Origin: Mustelus asterias
Lineage: Eukaryota
Assembly: GCF_964213995.1 (NCBI RefSeq)
Contig: NC_135802.1
Span: 47,430,001 to 47,494,000, forward strand
DNA: 64,000 nucleotides
Direction of reading: 5' to 3'
Below, one piece after another: positions 1,253-54,883 of the stretch (the stretch's first letter is position 1; the number at the start of each line of letters is the position of its first letter). Position numbers and translations under genes: made by a program. Under the pieces are notes generated by a model. It saw only the letters and a program-made list of their open reading frames with translations, did no database searches and was not told where the DNA came from.

Positions 1253-2254
1253 GAGCAGGTCAGTTAGCATCGGTAAGGAACAAAGATGGGTTATTGATGT
1301 TTCACCTGCGTATCCTTTAATTAATAGCTAGGTAGTTGGTATGCTGTTTGTAAACTGGTTAACACCTGAAGCTCAACTGTGAGCGCCAGCAGTTTATTGT
1401 TCCCATGACAGCAAGCCAAAGGCATTGTTGCCATGGTAGCAATAGATTTTGCCAGCTGTTCAATGAGATCATACACCATGTGCTGAAAAAGGTCATTAGG
1501 AGCTTTTGCATTTCATATAGAACCCGGATTGCAATATTTGGTCATATTTCTAATGTTTTGTATATGGAGACAGAAATGCAACATAAGCAACAGCTTCATG
1601 TGAAATGCCTTGTACTTAATGTCAAATTTTTGGCTTTCATTTTACATTTAAGCATAACTTATTTCAATTTTATAGTTTACAGAAAGTATTGGGAAACGTT
1701 TTTGTCCTTTTTACATTGTGTTATTATTGACAATTAAATCTTGTATTGTTTTATGTGAAACATTTCCTTAGTAAAGAAAACAGACTAAACTAGCCATGAT
1801 TATATTTCCTTTTTAATTTTGTGCACTGTCTACAGTAAGCTTATTTATAATGCCCCTATTTTTGAGTCACAATTTTTATATCAACATTTTTAGACAATGA
1901 TATTTTATCAACAATGATAAAACCTGGAGGTTAATATTTGCTGTCATACAATAGGGCCAGGTCTTCAGCCACTGATTAGCACTGCACGTGTTTCTTAGAT
2001 CTGCCTGTCATTTGGGTTTTAACACTCAATTGGAAATCTATTATGTTTGAAGTTGTCCAATTTTGAATAATAATTTGCCTAGCTTGTGTGGTTTGGCCTC
2101 GAAAACCTAGCTCTTGCACCAACTGATTTTACAGCTGACAGATTGTGGCCACTTTGTAACAACTGATTTATTATTTTCCTTGAGCCTACTACATATGACT
2201 CTTGCTTCCTCACACAGTGACCTCTTGCTTGCTTTTCATATCCCTGCAAGTGAT

Positions 2255-3503
2255 AGAACAAAGCAGAATGATGAGACAGAGTACAAGAATGAGATAGAGA
2301 ATCTGGTGAACTGGTGCGGCAAAAATAATCTCTCCCTCAATGTCAACAAAATGAAGGAGATTGTCATTGACTTCAGGAAGCATAGTGGAGGACATGCCCC
2401 TGTCAACATCAATGGGGACGAAGTAGAAATGGTCAAGAGCTTCAAGTTTTTAGGTGTCCAGATCACCAACAACCTGTTCTGGTCCCCCCATGCCAACACT
2501 ATAGTTAAGAAAGCCCACCAATGCCTCTACTTTCTTAGAAGACTAAAGAAATTTGGCATGTCAGCTACGATCAGCCATGATCTTACTGAATGGCGGAGCA
2601 GGCTTGAGGGGCTAGGTGGCCTACTCCTGCTCCTATTTCTTATGTTCTTATGACTCTCACCAACTTTTACAGATACACCATAGAAAGCATTCTTTCTGGT
2701 TGTACAACAGCTTGGTAAGGCTCCTGCTCTGTCCAAGACCGCAAGAAACTACAAAAGGTCGTGAATGTAGCCCAATCCATCATGCAAACCAGCCTCCCAT
2801 CCATTGACTCGGTCGACACTTTCATAGAATCATAGAATCTTACAGTGCAGAAAGAGGCCATCCGGCCATCGAGTCTGCACCAACCACAATCCCACCCAGA
2901 CCCTATCGCCATATCCCTACATATTTACCTACTAATTCCTCTAACCGATGCATCCTGGGACACTCACAGTCAATTTAGCATGACCAATCAACCTAGCCCG
3001 CACATCTTTGGACTGTGGGTGGAAACCGGAGCACCTGGAGGAAACCCACGCAGACATGGGGAGAATGTGCAAACTCCACACAGACAGTGACTTAAGCCGG
3101 GATTCGAACCCAGGTCCCCGGAGCTGTGAAGCAGCAGTGCTAACCACTATGCTACCGTGCCGCCCACTGCCTCGGCAAAGCAGCCAGCATAATTAAGGAC
3201 CCCACACACCCCGGACATTCTCTCTTCTACCTTCTTCCGTCGGTAAAAAGATACAAAAGTCTGAGGTCACGTACCAACCGACTCAAGAACAGCTTCTTCC
3301 CTGCTGCTGTCAGACTTTTGAATGGACCTACCTTGCATTAAGTTGATCTTTTTCTACACCCTAGCTATGACTGTAACATTACATTCTGCTCTCTCTCCTT
3401 TCCTTCCCTATGAACGATATGCTTTGTCTGTGGTAGCGCGCAAGAAACGATACTTTTCACAGTATGTTAATACATGTGACAATAATAAATCAAATCAAAT
3501 CAA
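2255..3503 (+). mobile_element. Rex1/Babar-clade LINE 3' fragment, interrupted by a CR1 3' end (~2569-2652) and an HE1 SINE
   Basis: RT C-terminus NDETEYKNEIENLVNWCGKNNLSLNVNKMKEIVIDFRK...KKAHQCLYFLRRLKKFG; ends in an aataaa(tcaaa)n tail. Confidence 0.85.
2824..3165 (-). mobile_element. HE1-type V-SINE with CR1-derived tail
   Basis: tRNA-like head ggcggcacggtagcatagtggttagcactgctgc, V-domain gggtttcctccaggtgctccggtttc and (ttctatga)n tail. Confidence 0.9.
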
Positions 3504-6650: not shown

Positions 6651-9600
6651 GGGGGCGATTATCCCATTCCAACCCGCTAATTTTTTGGTGGGTCGGGCTG
6701 GGAGATTTGCACATGTGTTCCCGAAGCGCGTGCATCTCTCAGCGACGGATATCCGGCGCGGTCGGGACCACACTGGAAACTGGCGGGAACAGCAGGCAAG
6801 TCACTTTAATCTTATTTCAATGTGATTATGGGGACTGGGACTCAATTTTCCAGGCCCGATAGCATTTCCCACCCGCCAGTACAATTTCATTCTAGTGGGG
6901 TTTAGAGTAACTACCCACTTTCGGGGAATTAATGGGCGATTTCGCTGGAGTGAAGGGGGGACAATCAAGAGGTGGGGGATGGTGCCCCCGGGCATGGGCA
7001 CCCTGGCAGTGCCAGCCTGTGCCCCCGGCACTGCCCACCGGGCATTGGGCAGTGCCAAGGGTGTAGGGCCTATTGGGGGTGGGGCCTTGGCGGCGATCGG
7101 TGGGGGTGAGGGGTCCCGATGCCACTGACATTTGGATTGATTGGGGCTGGAGGGAATTTTGCAATCGGGCGGGCTGGGAGGGGGGGTAGGGAGGTGGTCT
7201 GCTGGGGGAGGTCTGCCTCCTGTGGGAGGGGTCTGTCAGGGGAGATCATTACTGGTGGGGCGGTGGAGGAATCGGGGCTGGCCTGGGAATGCTTGTGGGG
7301 GCCATGATTGGGCCATGGCGGGGTGCTGGAGGGGCAGCACTGCGGGAGTCCCAGGCCTGGCCAGCAAACTGCAGGCTCCCAGTTTGGGGCCACTGTGCAC
7401 GAGCAGCATTCCAGAACTGTCAGACTCCGGCGTGAAAAGGCCCCGCCCCTGAGCTTTTAATGATATTCACGATTGTGACCTCTGATTGCACAGAGTGGGA
7501 AGATTCAAGTTTGAACTCCCACTGAAAAAAACAATCGTGATTTACACCATTTTTCCTGCGAATTCAGCACTTAGAACCATTGAACATTACAGCACAGAAA
7601 CAGGCCTTTTGGCCCTTCTTGGCTGTGCCAAACCATTTTTCTGCCTAGTCCCATTGACCTGCACCTGGACCATATCCCTCCACACCCCTCTCTTCCATGT
7701 ACCTGTCCAAGTTTTTCTTAAATGTTAAAAGTGAGCCCGCATTCACCACCTCATCTGGCAGCTCATTCCACACTCCCACCACTCTCTGTGAAGAAGCCCC
7801 CCCTAATATTCCCTTTAAACTTTTCCCCCCTCACCCTTAACCCATGTCCTCTAGTTATTTTCTCCCCTAGCCTCAGTGGAAAAAGCCTGCTTACATTCAC
7901 TCTATCTATACCCATCATAATTTTATACACCTCTATCAAATCTCCCCTCATTCTTCTACGCTCCAGGGAATAAAGTCCTAACCTATTCAACCTTTCTCTG
8001 TAACTCAGTTTCTCAAGTCCCGGCAACATCCTTGTAAACCTTCTCTGCACTCTTTCAACCTTATTAATATCCTTCCTGTAATTAGGTGACCAAAACTGCA
8101 CACAATACTCTAAATTCGGCCTCACCAATGTCTTATACAACCTCACCATAACATTCCAACTCCTATACTCAATACTTTGATTTATAAAGGTCAATGTACC
8201 AAAAGCACTCTTTACAACCCTATCTACCTGTGACGCCACTTTTAGGGAATTATGTATCTGTATTCCCAGATCCCTCTGTTCTACTGCACTCTTCAGTGTC
8301 CTGCCATTTACCTTGTATGTTCTACCTTGGTTTGTCCTTCCAAAGTGCAATACCTCACACTTGTCTGCATTAAACTCCATCTGCCATTTTTCAGCCCATT
8401 TTTCTAGCTGGTCCAAATCCCTCTGCAAGCTTTGAAAACCTTCCTCACTGTCCACTACACCTCCAATCTTTGTATCATCAGCAAATTTGCTGATCCAATT
8501 TACCACAGTATCATCCAGATCATTGATATAGATGACAAACAACAATGGATCCAGCACTGATCCCTGAGGCACACCACTAGTCACAGGCCTCCACTCAGAT
8601 AAGCAATCCTCCACTACCACTCCCTGGCTTCTTCCATTGCATCTCCACATCATTCTTCCATTGAGCCAATGTCTAATCCAATTTACTACCTCTCCATGTA
8701 TACCTAGCGACTGAACCTTCCTGACTAACCTCCAGTAAGGTCTTTGACAAGATCCCGCATGGAAGTCCATGTAGACAACATCCACTGCCTTCCCTTCATC
8801 CACTTTCCTGGTAACCTCCTCGAAAAACTCTAATAGATTGGTTAAACATGACCTACCACGCACAAAGCCATGTTGACTCTCCCTAATAAGTCCCTGGCTA
8901 TCCAAATATTTGTAGATCCTATCTCTTAGTACTCCTTCCAATAATTTACCTACTGACGTCAAACGTACCGGCCTATAATTTCCCGCATTACTTTTTGAGC
9001 CTTTTTTAAACAGCGGAACAACATGAGCTATCCTCCAATCATCCGGCACCTCACCCGTGGATACCGACATTTTAAATATATCTGCCAGGGCCCCTGCAAT
9101 TTCAGCACTAGTCTCCTTCAAGGTCTGAGGGAATACCCTGTCCGGTCCTGGGGATTTATCTACTCTGATTTGCCTCAAGACAACAAGCACCTCCTCCCCT
9201 TTAATCTGTATAGGTTCCATGACCTCCCTACTTGTTTGCCTTATTTCCATAGACTCCATGCCAGTTTCCTGAGTAAATACGGATGCAAAAAAACCATTTA
9301 ATATCTCCCCCATTTCTTTTGGTTCCATACATAGCCAACCACTCTGATCTTCAAGAGCACCAATTTTATCCCTTACTATCCTTTTGCTCTTAATATACCT
9401 GTAGAAGCTCTTAGCATTATCCTTCACCTTGTCTGCCAAAGCAACCTCATGTCTTCTTTTAGCCCTCCTGATTTCTTTCTTAAGTAGTTTCTTGCACTTT
9501 TTACACTCCTCAAGCATCTTTTTTGCTCCCTGTTGCCTAGACATGTCATACATCTCTCTCTTCTTCTTGATCAGAGTTCCAATATCCCTCGAGAACCAAG

Positions 9601-10125
9601 GTTCCTTATTCTTATTCACTTTGCCTTTAATCCTGACAGGAACATACAAACTCTGCACTCTCAAAATTTCTCCTTTGAAGGCCTCCCACTTACCATTCAC
9701 ATCCTTGCCAGAGAACAGCCTGTCCCAATCCATGCTTTTTAGATCCTTTCTCATTTCTTCAAATTTGGCCTTTTTCCAGTTTAGAACCTCAACCCGAGGA
9801 CCAGATCTATCTTTATCCATGATCAACTTGGAACTAATGGCGTTATGATCACTGGAACCAAAGTGTTCCCCTACACACACTTCCGTCACTTGTCCTAACT
9901 CGTTTCCTAATAGGAGATCTAATATTGCATCCTGTCTAGTTGGTACCTCTATATATTGATTTAGAAAATTTTCCTGAACACATTTTACAAGCTCTAACCT
10001 GTCTAGACCTTTAACAGTATGGGAGTCCCAATCTATATGTGGAAAATTAAAATCCCCTACTATCACAACTTTATGTTTCCTGCAGTTGTCTGCTATCTTA
10101 GAATATTTTTGGGAGAATCGTCCCC
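6651..10125. mobile_element. Harbinger-type MITE (~950 bp) split by a CR1 insertion
   Basis: TIRs gggggcgattatccca (6651) and tgggagaatcgtcccc (ends 10125); 3-bp TSD act at 6648-6650 and 10126-10128. Confidence 0.8.
7577..10096 (-). mobile_element. 5'-truncated young CR1 LINE, open ORF2 (end of APE endonuclease plus complete RT)
   Basis: ORF 7763-10156 has GDFNFP, SDH, PGPD, NYRPV, QHGF, GVPQGSVL and FADD motifs. TSD cttagaa at 7570-7576 and 10097-10103. The first ~20 aa of the ORF come from the flanking MITE/host sequence. Confidence 0.95.
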
Positions 10126-11754
10126 ACTGTTCTGTCTTTCGCCCATTTTTACCCAAAATGACTCCTATTCCATGAGTCTCAATTTATTTTACGTGGTATT
10201 TTGTTGAAGGCTTTCTTAAAATCCATACTGACAGATCCATTGTATCCCTTCATCATTTGTTAGTTCAATAGAAAGGCCTTTTACAAGTCCATGCTAACTC
10301 TCCTTAATTAAGTAAAATCTCCCCATGTGCCTGTCGATTTTCTCCTGGATGTTAAACTGATTGACCTGTAGCTACAAGGAATGTAGCTACACCTTTCTTG
10401 AAAAAGTGTCACTGTACAATCCTCTGGTGCCTCCTGTGCATCAGGCAATATTCCATAGAATCCCTACAGTGCAGAAGAAGACCATTTGGCCCATCGAGTC
10501 TGCCCGAATCCTCGAAAGATGACTCTACCTAGGCCCATTCCCCTGCTCTATCCCCACGCATTGATCATTGCCAATCCACCTAACCTTCACATCTTGGAAG
10601 ATTATGCCTCAGCCTTCCACTATTTCCATTCTTTAACAACCTGGGAATGCAAGCCATCTGGACTAGGCAAGTATAGGCAGCCTTCCTAGTGCATCCTATT
10701 CATTTTCACCCCATCATTATGTTGGTGTTCAGTAAATCTCTAATGTTAACTTTTCTTGGGGGCGGAGAGAATTCACTGGCCCTGTGGCGATTGGCAGGTA
10801 TCTGTTGATTATTCCAAACAGCTTATTTTAATGTAATTAGCGAGCTTGAAGCCTGATTCAAAGTCCTCCCGCCATTCACCCACCTCTCCAGTGGGATCTG
10901 AACAGCTTTGGTGCTGCTCTTGAGCATCGTGGCACATTGGACCTCAAGTGGGGTCGGGCAAGTTAAGTGCAGTGCCCATGTGTTCCTCTGCTGCTGCCAG
11001 GCTGCAACGGCAGAGTCCCCAAGGGTCCTGAGGTTGGATGGGTTCAGGAGGGGGGCAAGGGGTTGAACTTGGCACTCTCCCCGGGATGTGGGGGGGGAGG
11101 CGGGGGGTAGGTCTAGTGGCTAGGCTGATCCTTCTAGCCTGGGCAGCCTGAAGATCACTCCTGGCATGGTGATTTTCCTGCAAGTGGCAAGACTTTGCTT
11201 TTCTGGAGAATCACAGCCTATGTGTCTAAACCATTTTCCTTTGAGCTGCTGGTCCTATATGATGGTGTCATTCCATATCCCAGAAGACTGTCATTCCATA
11301 TGAGGCAAATCCAAACTCTACGTAGATTTCTCTTTAGTTTGGCTTGGAGATTAAGTTGGGTGATGGTTTCTGCACAATCAGACACATGACTAACCAATAA
11401 CAAGAAAATTAATTCAGTGAATATATAAGATTGAAAAGTTAGGCAATTTGTCTGATTTAAACTTGTTTGCTTAGTGACCATTATGACTTGAAATTTGCAC
11501 CTTTCTAATGTTCTAGCTCACATTTTGAATTGAAAACTGTTTCTACATGATGTAACTCATGCTACAACTAAACATCTATGAGAAGGATAGGAACAAGGAG
11601 CTGAAAAGTCCACAGTCTCCTCCATCCCACCCAGCAGTGACATTAGCTCATTGTCACCCAAGATACTGGCAGAAAATTACAGCACAGAAAGAGAACATTC
11701 AGCTCATCTATCCAGTAATGGTGGAAACTGGAAGAGAGCAATAGTTCCATTTTT

Positions 11755-25371: not shown

Positions 25372-25579
25372 ACACAAGAATACCAAATTTCAAAAGAACA
25401 ACAATATAAACCGCATGAAAAAAAGGGTACTGATTAGTTGGCAAGTGGATTCTGGTCAAGGCATTCCCAATGGAGAATGTACCAGGGAATAGTTATCCCC
25501 CAAACCTTAGCTAAAGTTCCTTGCTTTTTTGAATTTAAAAAGATTAAAAGGACCACCATATACAGTTTAAATTCATACC

Positions 25580-25773
25580 GTAAGAAGTCTCACCAACACC
25601 AGGTTAAAGTCTAACAGGTTTATTTGGAATCACGAGCTTTCAGAGTGGCTCACCTGATGAAGGAGCAGCGCTCCGAAAGCTCGTGATTTCAAATAAACCT
25701 GTTGGACTTTGGCCTGGTGTTGTGAGACTTCTTACTGTGCCCGGCCCAGTCCAGTGCTGACATCCCAACATCA
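25580..25773 (+). mobile_element. Short fold-back Penelope-like insertion with hammerhead and tail
   Basis: Inverted arms (gtaagaagtctcac.. / ..gtgagacttcttac), tail ..catcccaacatca, TSD taaattca(t/c)acc at 25568-25579 and 25774-25785. Confidence 0.85.
25650..25686 (+). ncRNA. Minimal type I hammerhead ribozyme motif
   Basis: tcac CTGATGA a ggagc-agc-gctcc GAAA gc TC gtga: intact core, stems I and II, palindromic AGCT stem III. Confidence 0.85.
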
Positions 25774-25807
25774 TAAATTCACACCAGTAGAGTGAATTAG
25801 GGACAAT

Positions 25808-27737: not shown

Positions 27738-27761
27738 GAGTAGCCTGTTATGACCTAGTCA

Positions 27762-28032
27762 CAGTAAGAAGTCTCACAACACCAGGTTAAAGTCCAACAG
27801 GTTTATTTGGTAGCAAATACCATAAGCTTTTGGAGCCCTGCTCCTTCATCAGATGGAGTGGAAATGTGCTCTCAAACAGTGCACAGAGAGCACATTTCCA
27901 CTCCATCTGACGAAGGAGCAGCACTCTGAAAACTTATGGTATTTGCTACCAAATAAACCTGTTGGACTTTAACCTGGTGTTGTGAGACTTCTTACTGTGT
28001 TCACCCCAGTCCAACGCCGGCATCTCCACATC
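27762..28032 (+). mobile_element. Fold-back Penelope-like insertion with two oppositely oriented hammerhead motifs
   Basis: ~112-bp inverted arms 27761-27873 and 27886-27998; tail ..gccggcatctccacatca; 12-bp TSD atgacctagtca at 27750-27761 and 28033-28044. Confidence 0.9.
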
Positions 28033-28256
28033 ATGACCTAGTCATGCAGGGTTGTGTTTCGTGACTTTACTAAATGGAGGAATCTCAACCTTTGCACTTG
28101 AAAAGTTAATCACCACTTTTGAAATGGTGTTTAAAAACTCTAACACCCTCCCAAGCTGACAGACTTTGGGGAGGTTATGTCGGTGGTGTTGGAAGCACCA
28201 AGGGAAAATGCAAAAAAAAAATCAGAATTGAAACCATATAGTAGCAGTCACTTTAC

Positions 28257-49385: not shown

Positions 49386-49731
49386 GGGCGGCATGGTAGC
49401 ACAGTGGTTAGCACTGCTGCTTCACAGCTCCAGGGTCCCGGGTTCGATTCCCGGCTCGGGTCAATGTCTGTGTGGAGTTTGCACATTCTCCTCGTGTCTG
49501 CGTGGGTTTCCTCCGGGTGCTCCGGTTTCCTCCCACAGTCCAAAGATGTGCGGGTTAGGTTGATTGGCCAGGTTTTAAAAAAATTGCCCCTTAGAGTCCT
49601 GGGATGTGTAGGTTAGAGGGATTAGTGGGTAAAATATGTGGGGGTAGGGCCTGGGTGGGATTGTGGTCGGTGCAGACTCGATGGGCCGAATGGCCTCCTT
49701 CTGCACTGTAGGGTTTCTATGATTTCTATGA
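49386..49731 (+). mobile_element. HE1 V-SINE, full length
   Basis: A box and B box (ggttcgattcc), V-domain and (tttctatga)n tail. Confidence 0.92.
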
Positions 49732-51889
49732 TATCCTGGGGGAGGTAACTGAATTGTGCACACACACTCATAAGAAAAATTATTACATTAATCTGCAAAT
49801 ATAGTCATTCAATTCTTTTCTTGAAATCACTTATGTTTACATGGGATCAAGGTGCATTTAAATTACTTGGCTTGTTATTATCCACTTCTGTTTCTCTTCT
49901 CTCAAGGCCTCAGTTTCTGTGCTAAGTACCCTTCCAGTAGATATTGTCAGGCTAAGTAAACATGGCTCTCGAATAGACTGGATCTTAAACTATGTCTGGC
50001 AGAGGCAGAGGCAGAGCCCGGCAGCCTGCACTACTACTGGGATCAGTACGGAGAAAAGAAAATCAAAACAAGGGGAAAGAATATTCAGGTCAATAGACCA
50101 TGACTGAAAAAGTCCAGCCAATTTCAAATTATTCTTTGTAATCAAATGTCAGGAAAAATATTATAAAGTAACGGGAGGACTTCAAGGAGAGGCTACAGAA
50201 AATTTGTTCTTGTTCTGTTCCAATGCCATCTGCTCACACCCCGCTGAAGATCTAGTTCTTATTACCACGTGTAATTGCAATTTAATCTTTGAGAAATAGC
50301 GTCAAGCCAAGCACTTGTATATCAGTGCATCCAATTACCAAACCCATCCTTACAACCCACAGCTCACATTTCCGCTTCAGGTCGCAGGCATCCAACCCAC
50401 ACAAATAATTCAGTTTCATCATGTACAGAAATCCTAGCAATGCCCTAATCAATATGAAGCTCTCCACACCAGTCATACTACAGACATAATTCACATTTAA
50501 GCCTATAGACCAAATGGCAATCCTGTAAATTATGGTGTTCCAACAAGAGATTAAGGGGCCAATTTTAATATGCTCAAAACCCTAAAAATCATGGCATTCA
50601 AAATCATTTCCAATCGCCAATGGAACAGAATGTTAGAAAGTGAATACTTCTTATCATCCTAAGCAACAGGGGCTTTGGGATTCTGTAGTCGCCTTCATCA
50701 TTTGCTATTTGTCACCAGATGGACCACTTACTTCCCTCAACATCTCTGCTCCAATTTGAGAAACCTCTTGGTTTGCTTCAATTTGCATGTCTTATGGATG
50801 AAAGAGAATTAATTACAACTAATTTAAAAAGTGCAATCAGTAAGAAAGCTCTGAACTGCTCAGGTTTTTACTCCCCCTGTCTGCTAATAGCATTTCAATA
50901 AACTCTATTTATTTTGGAATTAACAAGGTTATTTTTTCATCTTTAGGTGTGCGTATGGAGCTAAAATGAAATGGAAAGAACTGGATTGGATATCTGGTTA
51001 AGGACATACTGAAAATCTAAAGATGATTAAATACATGTCTGGCTCCTATATTATGATGTGGAGATGCCGGCGTTGGACTGGGGTAAGCACAGTAAGAAGT
51101 CTCACAACACCAGGTTAAAGTCCAACAGGTTTATTTGGTAGCAAATACCATAAGCTTTCGGAGCAATGCTCCTTCGTCAGATGGAGTGGTCTCTGTTCTC
51201 AAACAGGGCACAGACACAGAAATCAAATTACAGAATACTGATTAGAATGCAAATCTCTACAGCCAGCCAGGTCTTAAATGTACAGACAATGTGGGTGGAG
51301 GGAGCATTCAACACAGGTTAAAGAGATGTGTATTGTCTCCAGACAGTACAGCTTGTGAAATTGTGCAAGTCCAGGAGGCAAGCTGTGGGGGTTACTGATA
51401 ATGTGACATAAATCCAACATCCCAGTTTAGACCGTCCTCATGTGTGCGGAACTTGGCTATCAGTTTCTGCTCAGTGACTCTGCGCTGTCATGTGTCGTGA
51501 AGGCCGCCTTGGTGAAGACGAACATCTCGCCAAGGCCATCCCCACACCCCGGCACGGTAGCACAGTGGTCAGCACTGCTGCTTCACAGCTCCAGGGACCT
51601 GAGTTCGATTCCCGGCTTGGGTCACTGTCTGTGTGGAGTTTGCACATTCTCCTCGTGTCTGTGTGGGTTTCCTCCAGGCGCTCCGGTTTCCTCCCACAGT
51701 CCAAAGATGTGCGGGTTAGGTTGATTGGCCATGCTAAAAATTGCCCCTTAGTGTCCTGAGTAGGTTAGAGGGATTAGCGGGTAAATGTGTAGGGATATGG
51801 GAGTAGGGCCTGGGTGGGATTGTGGTCGGTGCAGACTTGATGGGCCGAATGGCCTGTTTCTGCACTGTAGGGTTTCTATGATTCTATGA

Positions 51890-52414
51890 CCCCCACTTCT
51901 TGCCTTCAAACAACCACGCAACCTCAAACAGACCATTGTCCGCAGCAAACTACCCAGCCTTCAGGAGAACAGTGACCACAACACCACACAATCCTGCCAC
52001 AGCAACCTCTGCAAGACGTGCCGGATCATCAACACGGATGCCATCATCTCACGTGAGAACACCATCTACCAGGTACACGGTACCTACTCTTGCAACTCGG
52101 CCAACATTGTCTACCTGATACGCTGCAAGAAAGGATGTCCCGAGGCATGGTACATTGGGGAAACCATGCAGACGCTACGACAACGGATGAATGAACACCG
52201 CTCGACGATCACCAGGCAAGACTGTTCTCTTCCTGTGGGGGAGCACTTCAGCAGTCACGGGCATTCAGCCTTGGATCTTCAGGTAAGCGTTCTCCAAGGC
52301 GGCCTTCACGACACATGACAGCGCAGAGTCACTGAGCAGAAACTGATAGCCAAGTTCCGCACACATGAGGACGGTCTAAACCGGGATGTTGGATTTATGT
52401 CACATTATCAGTAA
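51890..52414 (+). pseudogene. PLE ORF C-terminus: Cys linker plus GIY-YIG endonuclease, one premature stop
   Basis: PPLLAFKQPRNLKQTIVRSKL..CHSNLCKTC..NIVYLIRCKKGCPEAWYIGETMQTLRQRMNEHR..VGEHF..EQKLIAKFRTHEDGLN; TGA at 52316-52318. Confidence 0.9.
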
Positions 52415-52621
52415 CCCCCACAGCTTGCCTCCTGGACTTGCACAATTTCACAAGCTGTACTGTCTGGAGACAATACACATCTCTTTAACCTGTGTTGAAT
52501 GCTCCCTCCACCCACATTGTCTGTACATTTAAGACCTGGCTGGCTGTAGAGATTTGCATTCTAATCAGTATTCTGTAATTTGATTTCTGTGTCTGTGCCC
52601 TGTTTGAGAACAGAGACCACT

Positions 52622-52658
52622 CCATCTGACGAAGGAGCATTGCTCCGAAAGCTTATGG
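52622..52658 (+). ncRNA. Minimal hammerhead ribozyme motif (mirror copy on - at ~51148-51184)
   Basis: ccat CTGACGA a ggagc-att-gctcc GAAA gc TT atgg. Confidence 0.8.
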
Positions 52659-54883
52659 TATTTGCTACCAAATAAACCTGTTGGACTTTAACCTGGTGTT
52701 GTGAGACTTCTTACTGTCCTATATTATGTCCATGACAACTTCAACCTTTGAAACACATTGGGCAGAGGGTTGAATAGAATAGATTATGTTAATATTTTCC
52801 AACTCCGCTTCACTGGAGTCTGGTCCTGTATCTCCTCCAGGGGAATCAATTAATGGGGAAGTGCAGCAGGACAAATGGCAAAAGTTCTATTGTAGGAAAA
52901 AGGAGGCACTTTTCTCCTTCCATACTCATAGACAATATCATCTCTTTCCAGATGCAAGTGTTTGAACTGTCAAATAGTGCTCAGAGGTTACTCAACAACT
53001 TTGTGCCATTTTATTGTTGGAGCAGCTTCATAGCAAGTGATGGAGCAATACGTGGCACTGGAACACCAGCTTGCTGAACCATGTGCACTTGGCTGTTTAA
53101 ATAACGACTGGATACGTCCCAGCGATGATACCTTTCATGGTTGAATAGCCTAGCAGAACAGTTTACACATTCACATAAACTTAACTACTCAGTGGATAGA
53201 CTGAACATTGGTCTTCAAACAGTGCTAAAAAAAGGGGAAGAACATTTGTAAAATTAAGTATCATCCACATTCAAGCAGATAAGCCAACATCACACAATGC
53301 ATCAGAGTGAAGTCCACTGCCATACTATGGTTGATTGATCAGTTTTATGTCTACACAATACTTAACGGTTCTTTAATGCATGGATACTACCCTTAGTCAA
53401 TATTAAAATATGTGGAAAGAGGGAGGGAGAGAGGTGCTGTGGAGAAAGAGAGAGGAGGATAAAGCAGCATGATGAACACCGCTGTGTTACTGTTTACAAG
53501 ACAGCTGATTTAGATATAAATGTCTTTCTGCAGATTATAGAAATCAGCATGCATGGGTTTTAGAATGGCTTGCTTCTCATTTGTATTTAAGGCATGGTTC
53601 CACCATTTTAAAATTTGAATATTTTAAAATTGCTTCAATTCTCTACGCAGGGAGGGTGCATAGTTGGTTGGCTACTCTCAGAGGAGTTGGATATTATCTC
53701 AAACTGGGCAAGGTCACTGAATTTTGGCTCCCACTGTCATTTTCAATAAATCTCTGAACAACCAAAGCTTGTCATCACCTCCAGATGTATGAACCACTCA
53801 CTATGCTCTGGCAGCTCAGGGATCACTGATATTCAAAATGGATGGAGATGTAAAACGGCTGCAATAAATGAAGAGCAAAACAGATGTGGAGGGAAAACAA
53901 TATTGGTCAAAACAAGAAGGAAACGACATGATAACTAAACACTTTGCAGATTGGTTCAGGAAATGATTAACAGATAGGCCAGGAAAAAAGTGCAAAATCC
54001 TGATAAATTTTATAGTGACGTGTGATCATCCAGGTAGCTCTCAGCAGTGTCATTTTTTTCTGAGCCTCACAGTTATTCATCATTCACATCAGAAAATGCA
54101 TCAGAAAATTCTCATCCATGATCATAAACTTTAACCTGCTTTGCTTCACAATCTTCAATTTTTACCTGATAATAATAAGCTCCTGAAGATTAATTTTGAT
54201 GGCGAAAGGTTGAGCATTAAGAATCTACTGCCTGTCTTGGTAAAATGTGTGATAGGTTCACTTCAAGCTCCAGAGAAATTGAGAGTTTTCCTTTCACTTC
54301 CCTGGCAGCCAGAGGCAGAATTAATCAACCATGATGAAGTGATCATATTTCAGATCTTTAAGTATAATCTGATTTCACCTCCCCGCATCAACATTAGTAA
54401 ATCAATGTACTGATTCAGTTTTTCTGGCCAGAAAGAAATCTTGTGCGGCTTTGTGAAAAAAAAACTACAGCATAAAAGGGTTAGCCATGCTACCTAACTG
54501 ATATTGCCTCAAGGAAGGCTACATAGTAGATTTCAATCCTGTTATCTGCTAACACCCATCTTGATACCTGCATTCATTCAGAGATACAGATTCAGGAAGG
54601 ATAGACTGGACAGCAGCTAGAATCCTAGCATTTGATGTACCAAATTGTAAGGATTAGAAGTTGCCCTGCCCCAATGTCTGGGTTTTTTTCATAAAGTTAT
54701 TTTTAATTAAACTACTAGTCTCAGGCAGGAAGATAAAATATTCTCATTGCTTTTAAATACACATAGCTAACAGAACAATATTCAGGTTCAACAATGCAAT
54801 TCAAACAAAATCTAATCAATAAACTAATAATGATGATCAAGTATAGGTGTTTTGGAAGGTAAAGAATTTGTTGACCCACTTAC

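Follow-up and report, generated by a model that had tools for sequence, protein, structure and literature searches.

A 13-nucleotide Penelope-like tail in a CR1 element of Mustelus asterias lies at a sequence-defined insertion hotspot

How does the reverse transcriptase gene of one retroelement come to contain eight extra codons, with a fragment of another retroelement at their centre? The gene in question belongs to a CR1 LINE copy on the minus strand (positions 7572-10183), with an ORF2 frame at 7763-10183, matches to RVT_1 and Exo_endo_phos_2, and approximately 94–95% identity to its sister copies. It is located in the window, by which we mean the whole stretch of 64,000 nucleotides of Mustelus asterias DNA analysed here. 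Two identical 11-mers, at 8629-8639 and 8653-8663, enclose 13 nt at 8640-8652. The original prediction was that these 13 nt are the tail of a Penelope-like element (PLE) inserted between 11-bp repeats in the CR1 frame, and this is confirmed by the letters of the window, by shuffled sequences and by empty relatives. The 13-mer has three matches in the window (at 8640, at 28021 and, on the minus strand, at 51054-51066), compared to an expectation of 0.17, and none of 100 shuffles reached three. A longer, 15-mer match had also been proposed: the copy at 28020-28034 is exact, while the minus-strand copy is at 51053-51067, one base away from the 51054-51068 first given. The frame reads WLNGR-MMWRCNGR-SQ at the focal site and WLNGR-SQ in an empty copy (L034), and the insertion does add 24 nt in frame, as had been claimed, with a gain of eight codons. 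The 24 extra bases are 13 nt of the tail of a Neptune-type PLE plus an 11-bp duplication, at a CR1 hotspot.

The expected empty site is readily found in the CR1 relatives. An unbiased sample of 29 CR1 copies, picked by the DNA flanking the site, contained 25 empty copies, three with inserts (L033, L038 and L049) and one with an inversion starting at the site (L050); the focal insert was present in none of the 29. Exact 27-mers of the empty site number 4,805 genome-wide (G000). Other insertions are few: 62 loci, with 90 kb of CR1 aligned, contain approximately five. The inversion in L050 (approximately 1467-1500, minus strand) is a short piece of CR1 running from the hotspot edge, contains no PLE sequence, and has the appearance of a double-strand-break repair scar. 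Public reads and contigs from four runs were also searched with the empty CR1 stretch; two runs gave two and zero reads, and the others short divergent contigs. The in-frame length of the focal insert is probably due to chance: selection for an in-frame insert was considered and rejected, since other inserts at the CR1 site have all lengths. The host is probably unaffected by one 13-nt insertion in an old copy of CR1.

By its sequence, the source is an EN+ PLE with the Neptune/Nematis arrangement of reverse transcriptase (RT), linker and GIY-YIG domain. Locus L133 contains a 915-codon open frame with YIDD and YIGET motifs and an RVT_1 match. A GIY-YIG profile match was obtained on a fragment in the window, and none was reported for the full 915-codon frame. 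The linker before the GIY-YIG domain is of the form CX4CxxC (CHSNLCKTC) and is present in 49 of 60 aligned rows; a CCHH endonuclease motif, with cysteines in the GIY-YIG core and two downstream histidines, was recognised in the alignment by eye. EN+ PLEs of the Neptune and Nematis type are described as having the RT followed by a CX2-5CxxC linker and GIY-YIG (PMC8557442). A pLTR, an inverted arm and a one-sided tail of approximately 36 nt are also present. The L133 sequence was folded with its first codons taken from the inverted-arm junction, which makes approximately 15 N-terminal residues non-native; the predicted structure has a pLDDT of 91.9 and long N-terminal helices over residues 4-132, and its top six structure matches are all telomerase RTs. 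A sequence search of the PDB with the PLE protein gave no match. The relatives of the protein are from sharks, and pieces of it are found inside annotated host-gene isoforms of several sharks (P0004, P0009-P0015), which would represent either exonised PLE or annotation error. Hammerhead-like core motifs were noted in the pLTR by eye (52620-52660 and 27900-27935); a search for a hammerhead ribozyme there gave no Rfam match and a folding z of -0.28.

The window contains two larger two-armed copies of the element, both on the plus strand and both with a 12-bp duplication inside TG-N16-CA. One (27750-28044) is 271 bp long with the tail on the right arm; the other (51044-52728) is 1,661 bp long including a nested repeat, carries the GIY-YIG fragment, and has the tail on the inverted left arm. 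The nested repeat (51515-51889, approximately 375 bp) lies at the junction of the arms and has relatives at 2822-3165 and 49386-49731. An older, diverged two-armed copy at 25577-25776 has a degenerate duplication of approximately 11 bp and no clear fit to TG/CA.

A larger sample shows that the TG/CA arrangement is a general one. Among 112 tails in the retrieved loci, a duplication of at least 7 bp was found in 78 and of at least 10 bp in 62, mostly 12–13 bp, leaving 34 in which the script found no duplication of at least 7 bp. When the empty sites of the 62 were rebuilt, 34 had TG-N16-CA and 16 had TG-N17-CA (random expectation approximately 3.4% each), and 18 had the extended form CTG-N16-CAG, against a background of 0.2%. 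The edges of the duplication are mostly 2 nt inside each half-site, giving the rule TG-NN^[12-13 bp]^NN-CA, where the carets mark putative nick positions read from those edges. After L131 was dropped, as it is itself in the CR1 hotspot, 47 of 61 sites fit the rule. In a held-out 400 kb, seven of ten insertions with a duplication fit it (background 6.6%); the misfits are thus 14 of 61 training sites and three of ten held-out sites. L148 and L166 share a target sequence, and others (L113, L114) resemble sites in common repeats. Further PLE hotspots probably exist.

The focal insertion can be read in these terms. The target's left half, at 8624-8628 on the plus strand (the orientation of all the parts that follow), consists of CTG and two further bases, and in 78 of the first 100 junctions with a non-C base foreign sequence ends exactly here. 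A bottom-strand nick would fall between 8628 and 8629. Next comes the left copy of the duplication (8629-8639), which lacks the last base of the usual 12 bp and whose last G also matches the PLE tail; then the 13 nt of tail, in sense orientation (8640-8652); then the right copy (8653-8664), with the full 12 bp, whose first T is shared with the PLE template base that comes next. Positions 8665-8669 hold the target's right half, two bases followed by CA(A), and the corresponding top-strand nick would be between 8664 and 8665. The CR1 site matches both half-sites, and a weight matrix ranks it second in the 3.4-kb locus, with 12.5 bits.

The main point, which goes beyond the original prediction, is that this CR1 position is a hotspot defined by its sequence. 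Genome-wide, there are 415 occurrences of its right half with a non-C base in front. Inspection of the first 100 by eye identified the 78 foreign junctions and 22 point or 1-nt changes; a further 382 junctions at the CR1 site end at a second start of the element, described below. By extrapolation there would be approximately 700 PLE-type junctions at one exact CR1 base, in roughly a tenth of the copies. At two control CR1 bases examined by the same design, none of the junctions was foreign (0 of 36 and 0 of 6); the first is the better control because the 16-mer of the second is present in only 23 of 147 loci. For 78:22 at the hotspot against 0:36 at the control base, the Fisher p is 5e-18. The local density of PLE tails is approximately 30 per Mb (14 in 474 kb), which suggests an enrichment at the hotspot of the order of a thousandfold. 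An apparent strand bias, with the tail always on the right, was rejected as an artefact of the letter filter, which excludes second-start junctions: one form occurred three times and another 382 times.

Retrieval succeeded for 73 of the 78 foreign junctions, of which 72 were parsed and 60 had the left flank. These 60 resolved inserts range from 6 to 2,480 nt, with at least 11 nt of PLE in 55 of them; overall, the hotspot inserts run from bare duplications up to 2.5 kb, in both orientations. The duplication is 12 bp in 35 of the 60 and 13 bp in 12, in keeping with the earlier claim that the focal repeats resemble in length those of larger PLE copies. A search with a filled query returned 29 other CR1 loci, all 29 of which carried inserts; this sample is biased by its query, and rates were taken from the other samples.

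Short fills with exact flanks were found at the CR1 site in 63 copies, representing approximately 52 distinct events as judged by eye. These comprise 25 with at least 7 nt of PLE, seven with shorter possible PLE, three with a possible tail from another family, nine that are duplication only, and eight unassigned, the last two groups containing no recognisable PLE. Three short fills (L015, L021, L265) resemble a different tail variant, and another PLE subfamily may share the target. One could suppose that the position is simply fragile, a hairpin or host-made break patched with PLE cDNA, or that a few CR1 copies have been amplified. Short inverted repeats flank the site on direct reading, some fillers are copied from the flanks, and about 10 of the 63 short-filled copies are one duplicated locus. 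Nevertheless the edge is exact to the base, the same geometry recurs at unrelated sites, and the inserts differ between copies in length and orientation and are therefore mostly independent, which argues against amplification; we regard fragility or amplification as barely credible, and retain targeting by the element. One tail-filled CR1 site is present in ten copies (C71, C106 twice, C115, C124, C140, C401, C478, C667 and C754), mostly on small contigs and in two sequence variants, which could be an amplified locus or uncollapsed duplicates.

The same CR1 element contains a second, weaker target, CTG-N17-CAG, at 8564-8586 (plus strand), 60 bp from the hotspot and empty in the window copy. 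With the one junction filter tried, foreign junctions were found there in 17 of the first 100 of 397 matches. The weight matrix gives this site 15.3 bits, above the 12.5 bits of the hotspot, although the hotspot seems to be hit more often, and the motif and matrix are therefore incomplete as measures of site strength. Separate PLE insertions are present at both targets in L232, L239 and L243, the second-target insert in L243 being a short tail-only piece of approximately 25 nt. In L036 (approximately 1189-1415), some 225 bp of PLE stand in place of CR1 sequence and end near the second target.

The junctions indicate where copying begins. PLE inserts have two possible starts, the end of the tail and a point approximately 36 nt upstream of it, and the latter is used at least as often as the tail end at the CR1 site (the 382 junctions above). 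It had been suggested that the focal insert maps the priming end of the PLE RNA. This does not hold: beyond the tail, the template goes on to an in-frame ATG and the N-terminal part of the ORF, so that the end of the tail lies inside the RNA and is not its 3' end; junctions scatter from -3 to +7. The focal 13-mer insert does begin at a start site that is also used by longer PLE copies. In two-armed inserts, each arm uses a different one of the two starts. Among 62 tailed inserts, the opposite end was the second start 57 times, a plain join five times and never a tail; conversely, of 33 inserts at the hotspot that begin at the second start, 23 had a tail at the opposite end and two a join (one of which is possibly a second start), with eight having no assigned end. 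The left duplication is full in 39 of 39 left-primed inserts and in 9 of 21 unprimed ones (p 2e-7). Of 40 filler-free tail junctions, 33 show agreement between the target and the template base that follows, and 20 show it over two bases (p approximately 3e-14), using a single template copy as reference and a nick placed by the motif. Filler is present at 7 of 47 tail junctions.

On the basis of these observations, we consider it probable that the PLE protein cuts both strands of a spaced palindrome, that either or both of the 3' overhangs prime at internal starts on the RNA, and that ends without priming are cut back and then joined through microhomology. In this scheme the GIY-YIG protein, probably as a dimer, would nick each strand 2 nt inside the TG/CA half-sites to leave 3' overhangs of 12–13 nt. 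Either overhang could then prime reverse transcription inside the RNA, often aided by one to three matching bases. The priming overhang would be kept whole, and the non-priming overhang would be trimmed and joined to the end of the cDNA by microhomology, sometimes with filler copied from the flank. The geometry of the cut, the dimer and the repair pathway are all inferred. One-armed inserts are common at the hotspot (26 with second start and join, 16 with join and tail), and these would fit with sequential nicking as in ordinary target-primed reverse transcription, in which a nick at NN-CA is followed by priming and later by a second-strand nick at a similar half-site 12–13 nt away, with no dimer or simultaneous cut. 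GIY-YIG homing enzymes are described as monomeric nickases, and the length of PLE duplications has been ascribed to a later second-strand cut (PMC8557442). Against this, the spacer is fixed at 16–17 with both half-sites present, the two different starts are strictly paired in two-armed inserts, and there are duplication-only scars as well as an inversion starting at the CR1 site. We therefore think sequential nicking unlikely and prefer the cutting of both strands.

Under this preferred mechanism, the bottom strand of the focal site would have been primed at the tail end, with only 13 nt of cDNA surviving, and the top overhang would have lost one base and been joined through the shared G. The 13-mer would thus be made by the element's own endonuclease and RT, as suggested by the shared target and junction, and the 24 nt are likely to be the shortest outcome of the insertion reaction that the element normally carries out. 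The earlier proposal that reverse transcription aborted after approximately 13 nt stands as regards the PLE origin of the piece, while abortion is indistinguishable from the trimming of a longer cDNA. The scrap could also be what is left of a longer insertion, deleted later by microhomology-mediated repair or a second cut; microhomology deletions are reported to disable Penelope copies (PMC3846280), and several truncated-tail loci are internal deletions in longer copies. Such a deletion would need an end point no more than one base from the edge of the duplication, the same edge is common to many short inserts at the CR1 site, and trimming is tied to whether the overhang primed, all of which make a later deletion very unlikely compared to direct formation of the short piece.

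The focal insertion had been proposed to represent a class of micro-insertions. Such a class exists, as seen from the 63 short-filled copies, but it is modest in size: among the 78 foreign hotspot junctions, 12 (the focal case included) have inserts of 25 nt or less, and a blind scan of 1.06 Mb for short direct repeats recovered the focal case and no other PLE micro-insert. There was also no motif enrichment among the repeats of the blind scan, once the internal duplication of one repeat had been set aside by eye. The expected enrichment of tail 13-mers was borne out. Elsewhere in the genome, 277 are missing the three template bases that come before the 13-mer, whereas the reversed control gave 16; for the first 30 of these truncated-tail loci, a nearby repeat of at least 8 bp was found in seven (control 7.7%), and a motif-guided reconstruction with at least 5 bp fits seven (control 2.7%), the filler often being copied from the flank. 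Tail-only inserts with filler copied from neighbouring target DNA are seen in L190, L191, L192, L202 and L214, and we take this filler to resemble the templated insertions of polymerase theta. Micro-insertions are therefore real but a minority, with an estimated few thousand to about ten thousand genome-wide.

It is useful to compare these features with known systems. The L1 endonuclease is of the AP type and acts at TT/AAAA, priming takes place on poly(A), and the second priming site of L1 is not known to be fixed. The Neptune-type PLE is different in having two fixed internal starts and a symmetric target. It resembles L1 twin priming and L1 double-strand breaks in that both ends of the break may carry cDNA, in inverted orientation, and in its short-homology 5' joins (bioRxiv 10.1101/2024.12.14.628481). 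A close comparison among PLEs is with PAc (Poseidon_Ac of Anolis carolinensis), whose protein cuts and extends both strands in vitro, is predicted to dimerise via a long N-terminal helix, has two internal starts flanking the tail, prefers AT-rich ATT sites, and starts without target homology (PMC11167929). The two internal copying starts that bound the tail and the long helices in the predicted structure are thus shared. PAc belongs to the Penelope/Poseidon clade, and in place of its AT-rich ATT sites and starts without homology we find here a Neptune linker, a spaced palindromic target, a 12–13-bp stagger and frequent 1–3-nt matches; the term 'duplication' is absent from the main text of PMC11167929. 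Heavy 5' truncation, an inverted arm, a tail of 30–40 bp at one end and microhomology 5' joins agree with Neptune/Nematis-type elements and with the general PLE layout (PMC8557442, PMC3846280). The same two papers report duplications of 8–10 bp for rotifer PLEs, a variable duplication length for PLEs, a 'moderate' target preference and a microsatellite bias, with one of the two preferring self-priming as the origin of the inverted arm. The spaced palindrome, the hotspot in another retroelement and the tail-only inserts set the present element apart from their descriptions, as far as the parts of these papers covered here extend. In the literature searched, which excluded Repbase and most subscription papers, no description was found of a PLE target in the form of a spaced palindrome, of a CR1 hotspot for PLEs or of tail-only inserts.

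The focal scrap is real and mechanistically ordinary, and it points to a targeting rule that is unusual and to a natural data set that is useful. A fuller reading, to which we incline slightly, is that the Neptune-type element is a sequence-directed double-strand integrase, in which a dimer would read two CTG half-sites 16–17 bp apart and make a 12–13-nt staggered break, with two fixed internal RNA starts assigned to the two overhangs. It would have left thousands of unannotated footprints of 0–35 nt, including cDNA-free duplications, and filled about a tenth of the copies of one CR1 site, so that this site would preserve, like a natural library, the results of repairing one defined cut. The way in which PLEs integrate, and the reason for their inverted arm and one-sided tail, are still open questions (PMC8557442, PMC11167929). 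With the target defined and the nick positions predicted, a simple cleavage assay for PLE integration becomes available, and from the approximately 700 events at one base one can read which overhang acted as primer, where copying started and how the other end was joined. Short indels and 12–13-bp duplications between TG and CA in such genomes may be retroelement footprints missed by repeat annotation. Finally, the insertion of the PLE into CR1 is a case in which one retroelement recurrently disrupts the RT gene of another.
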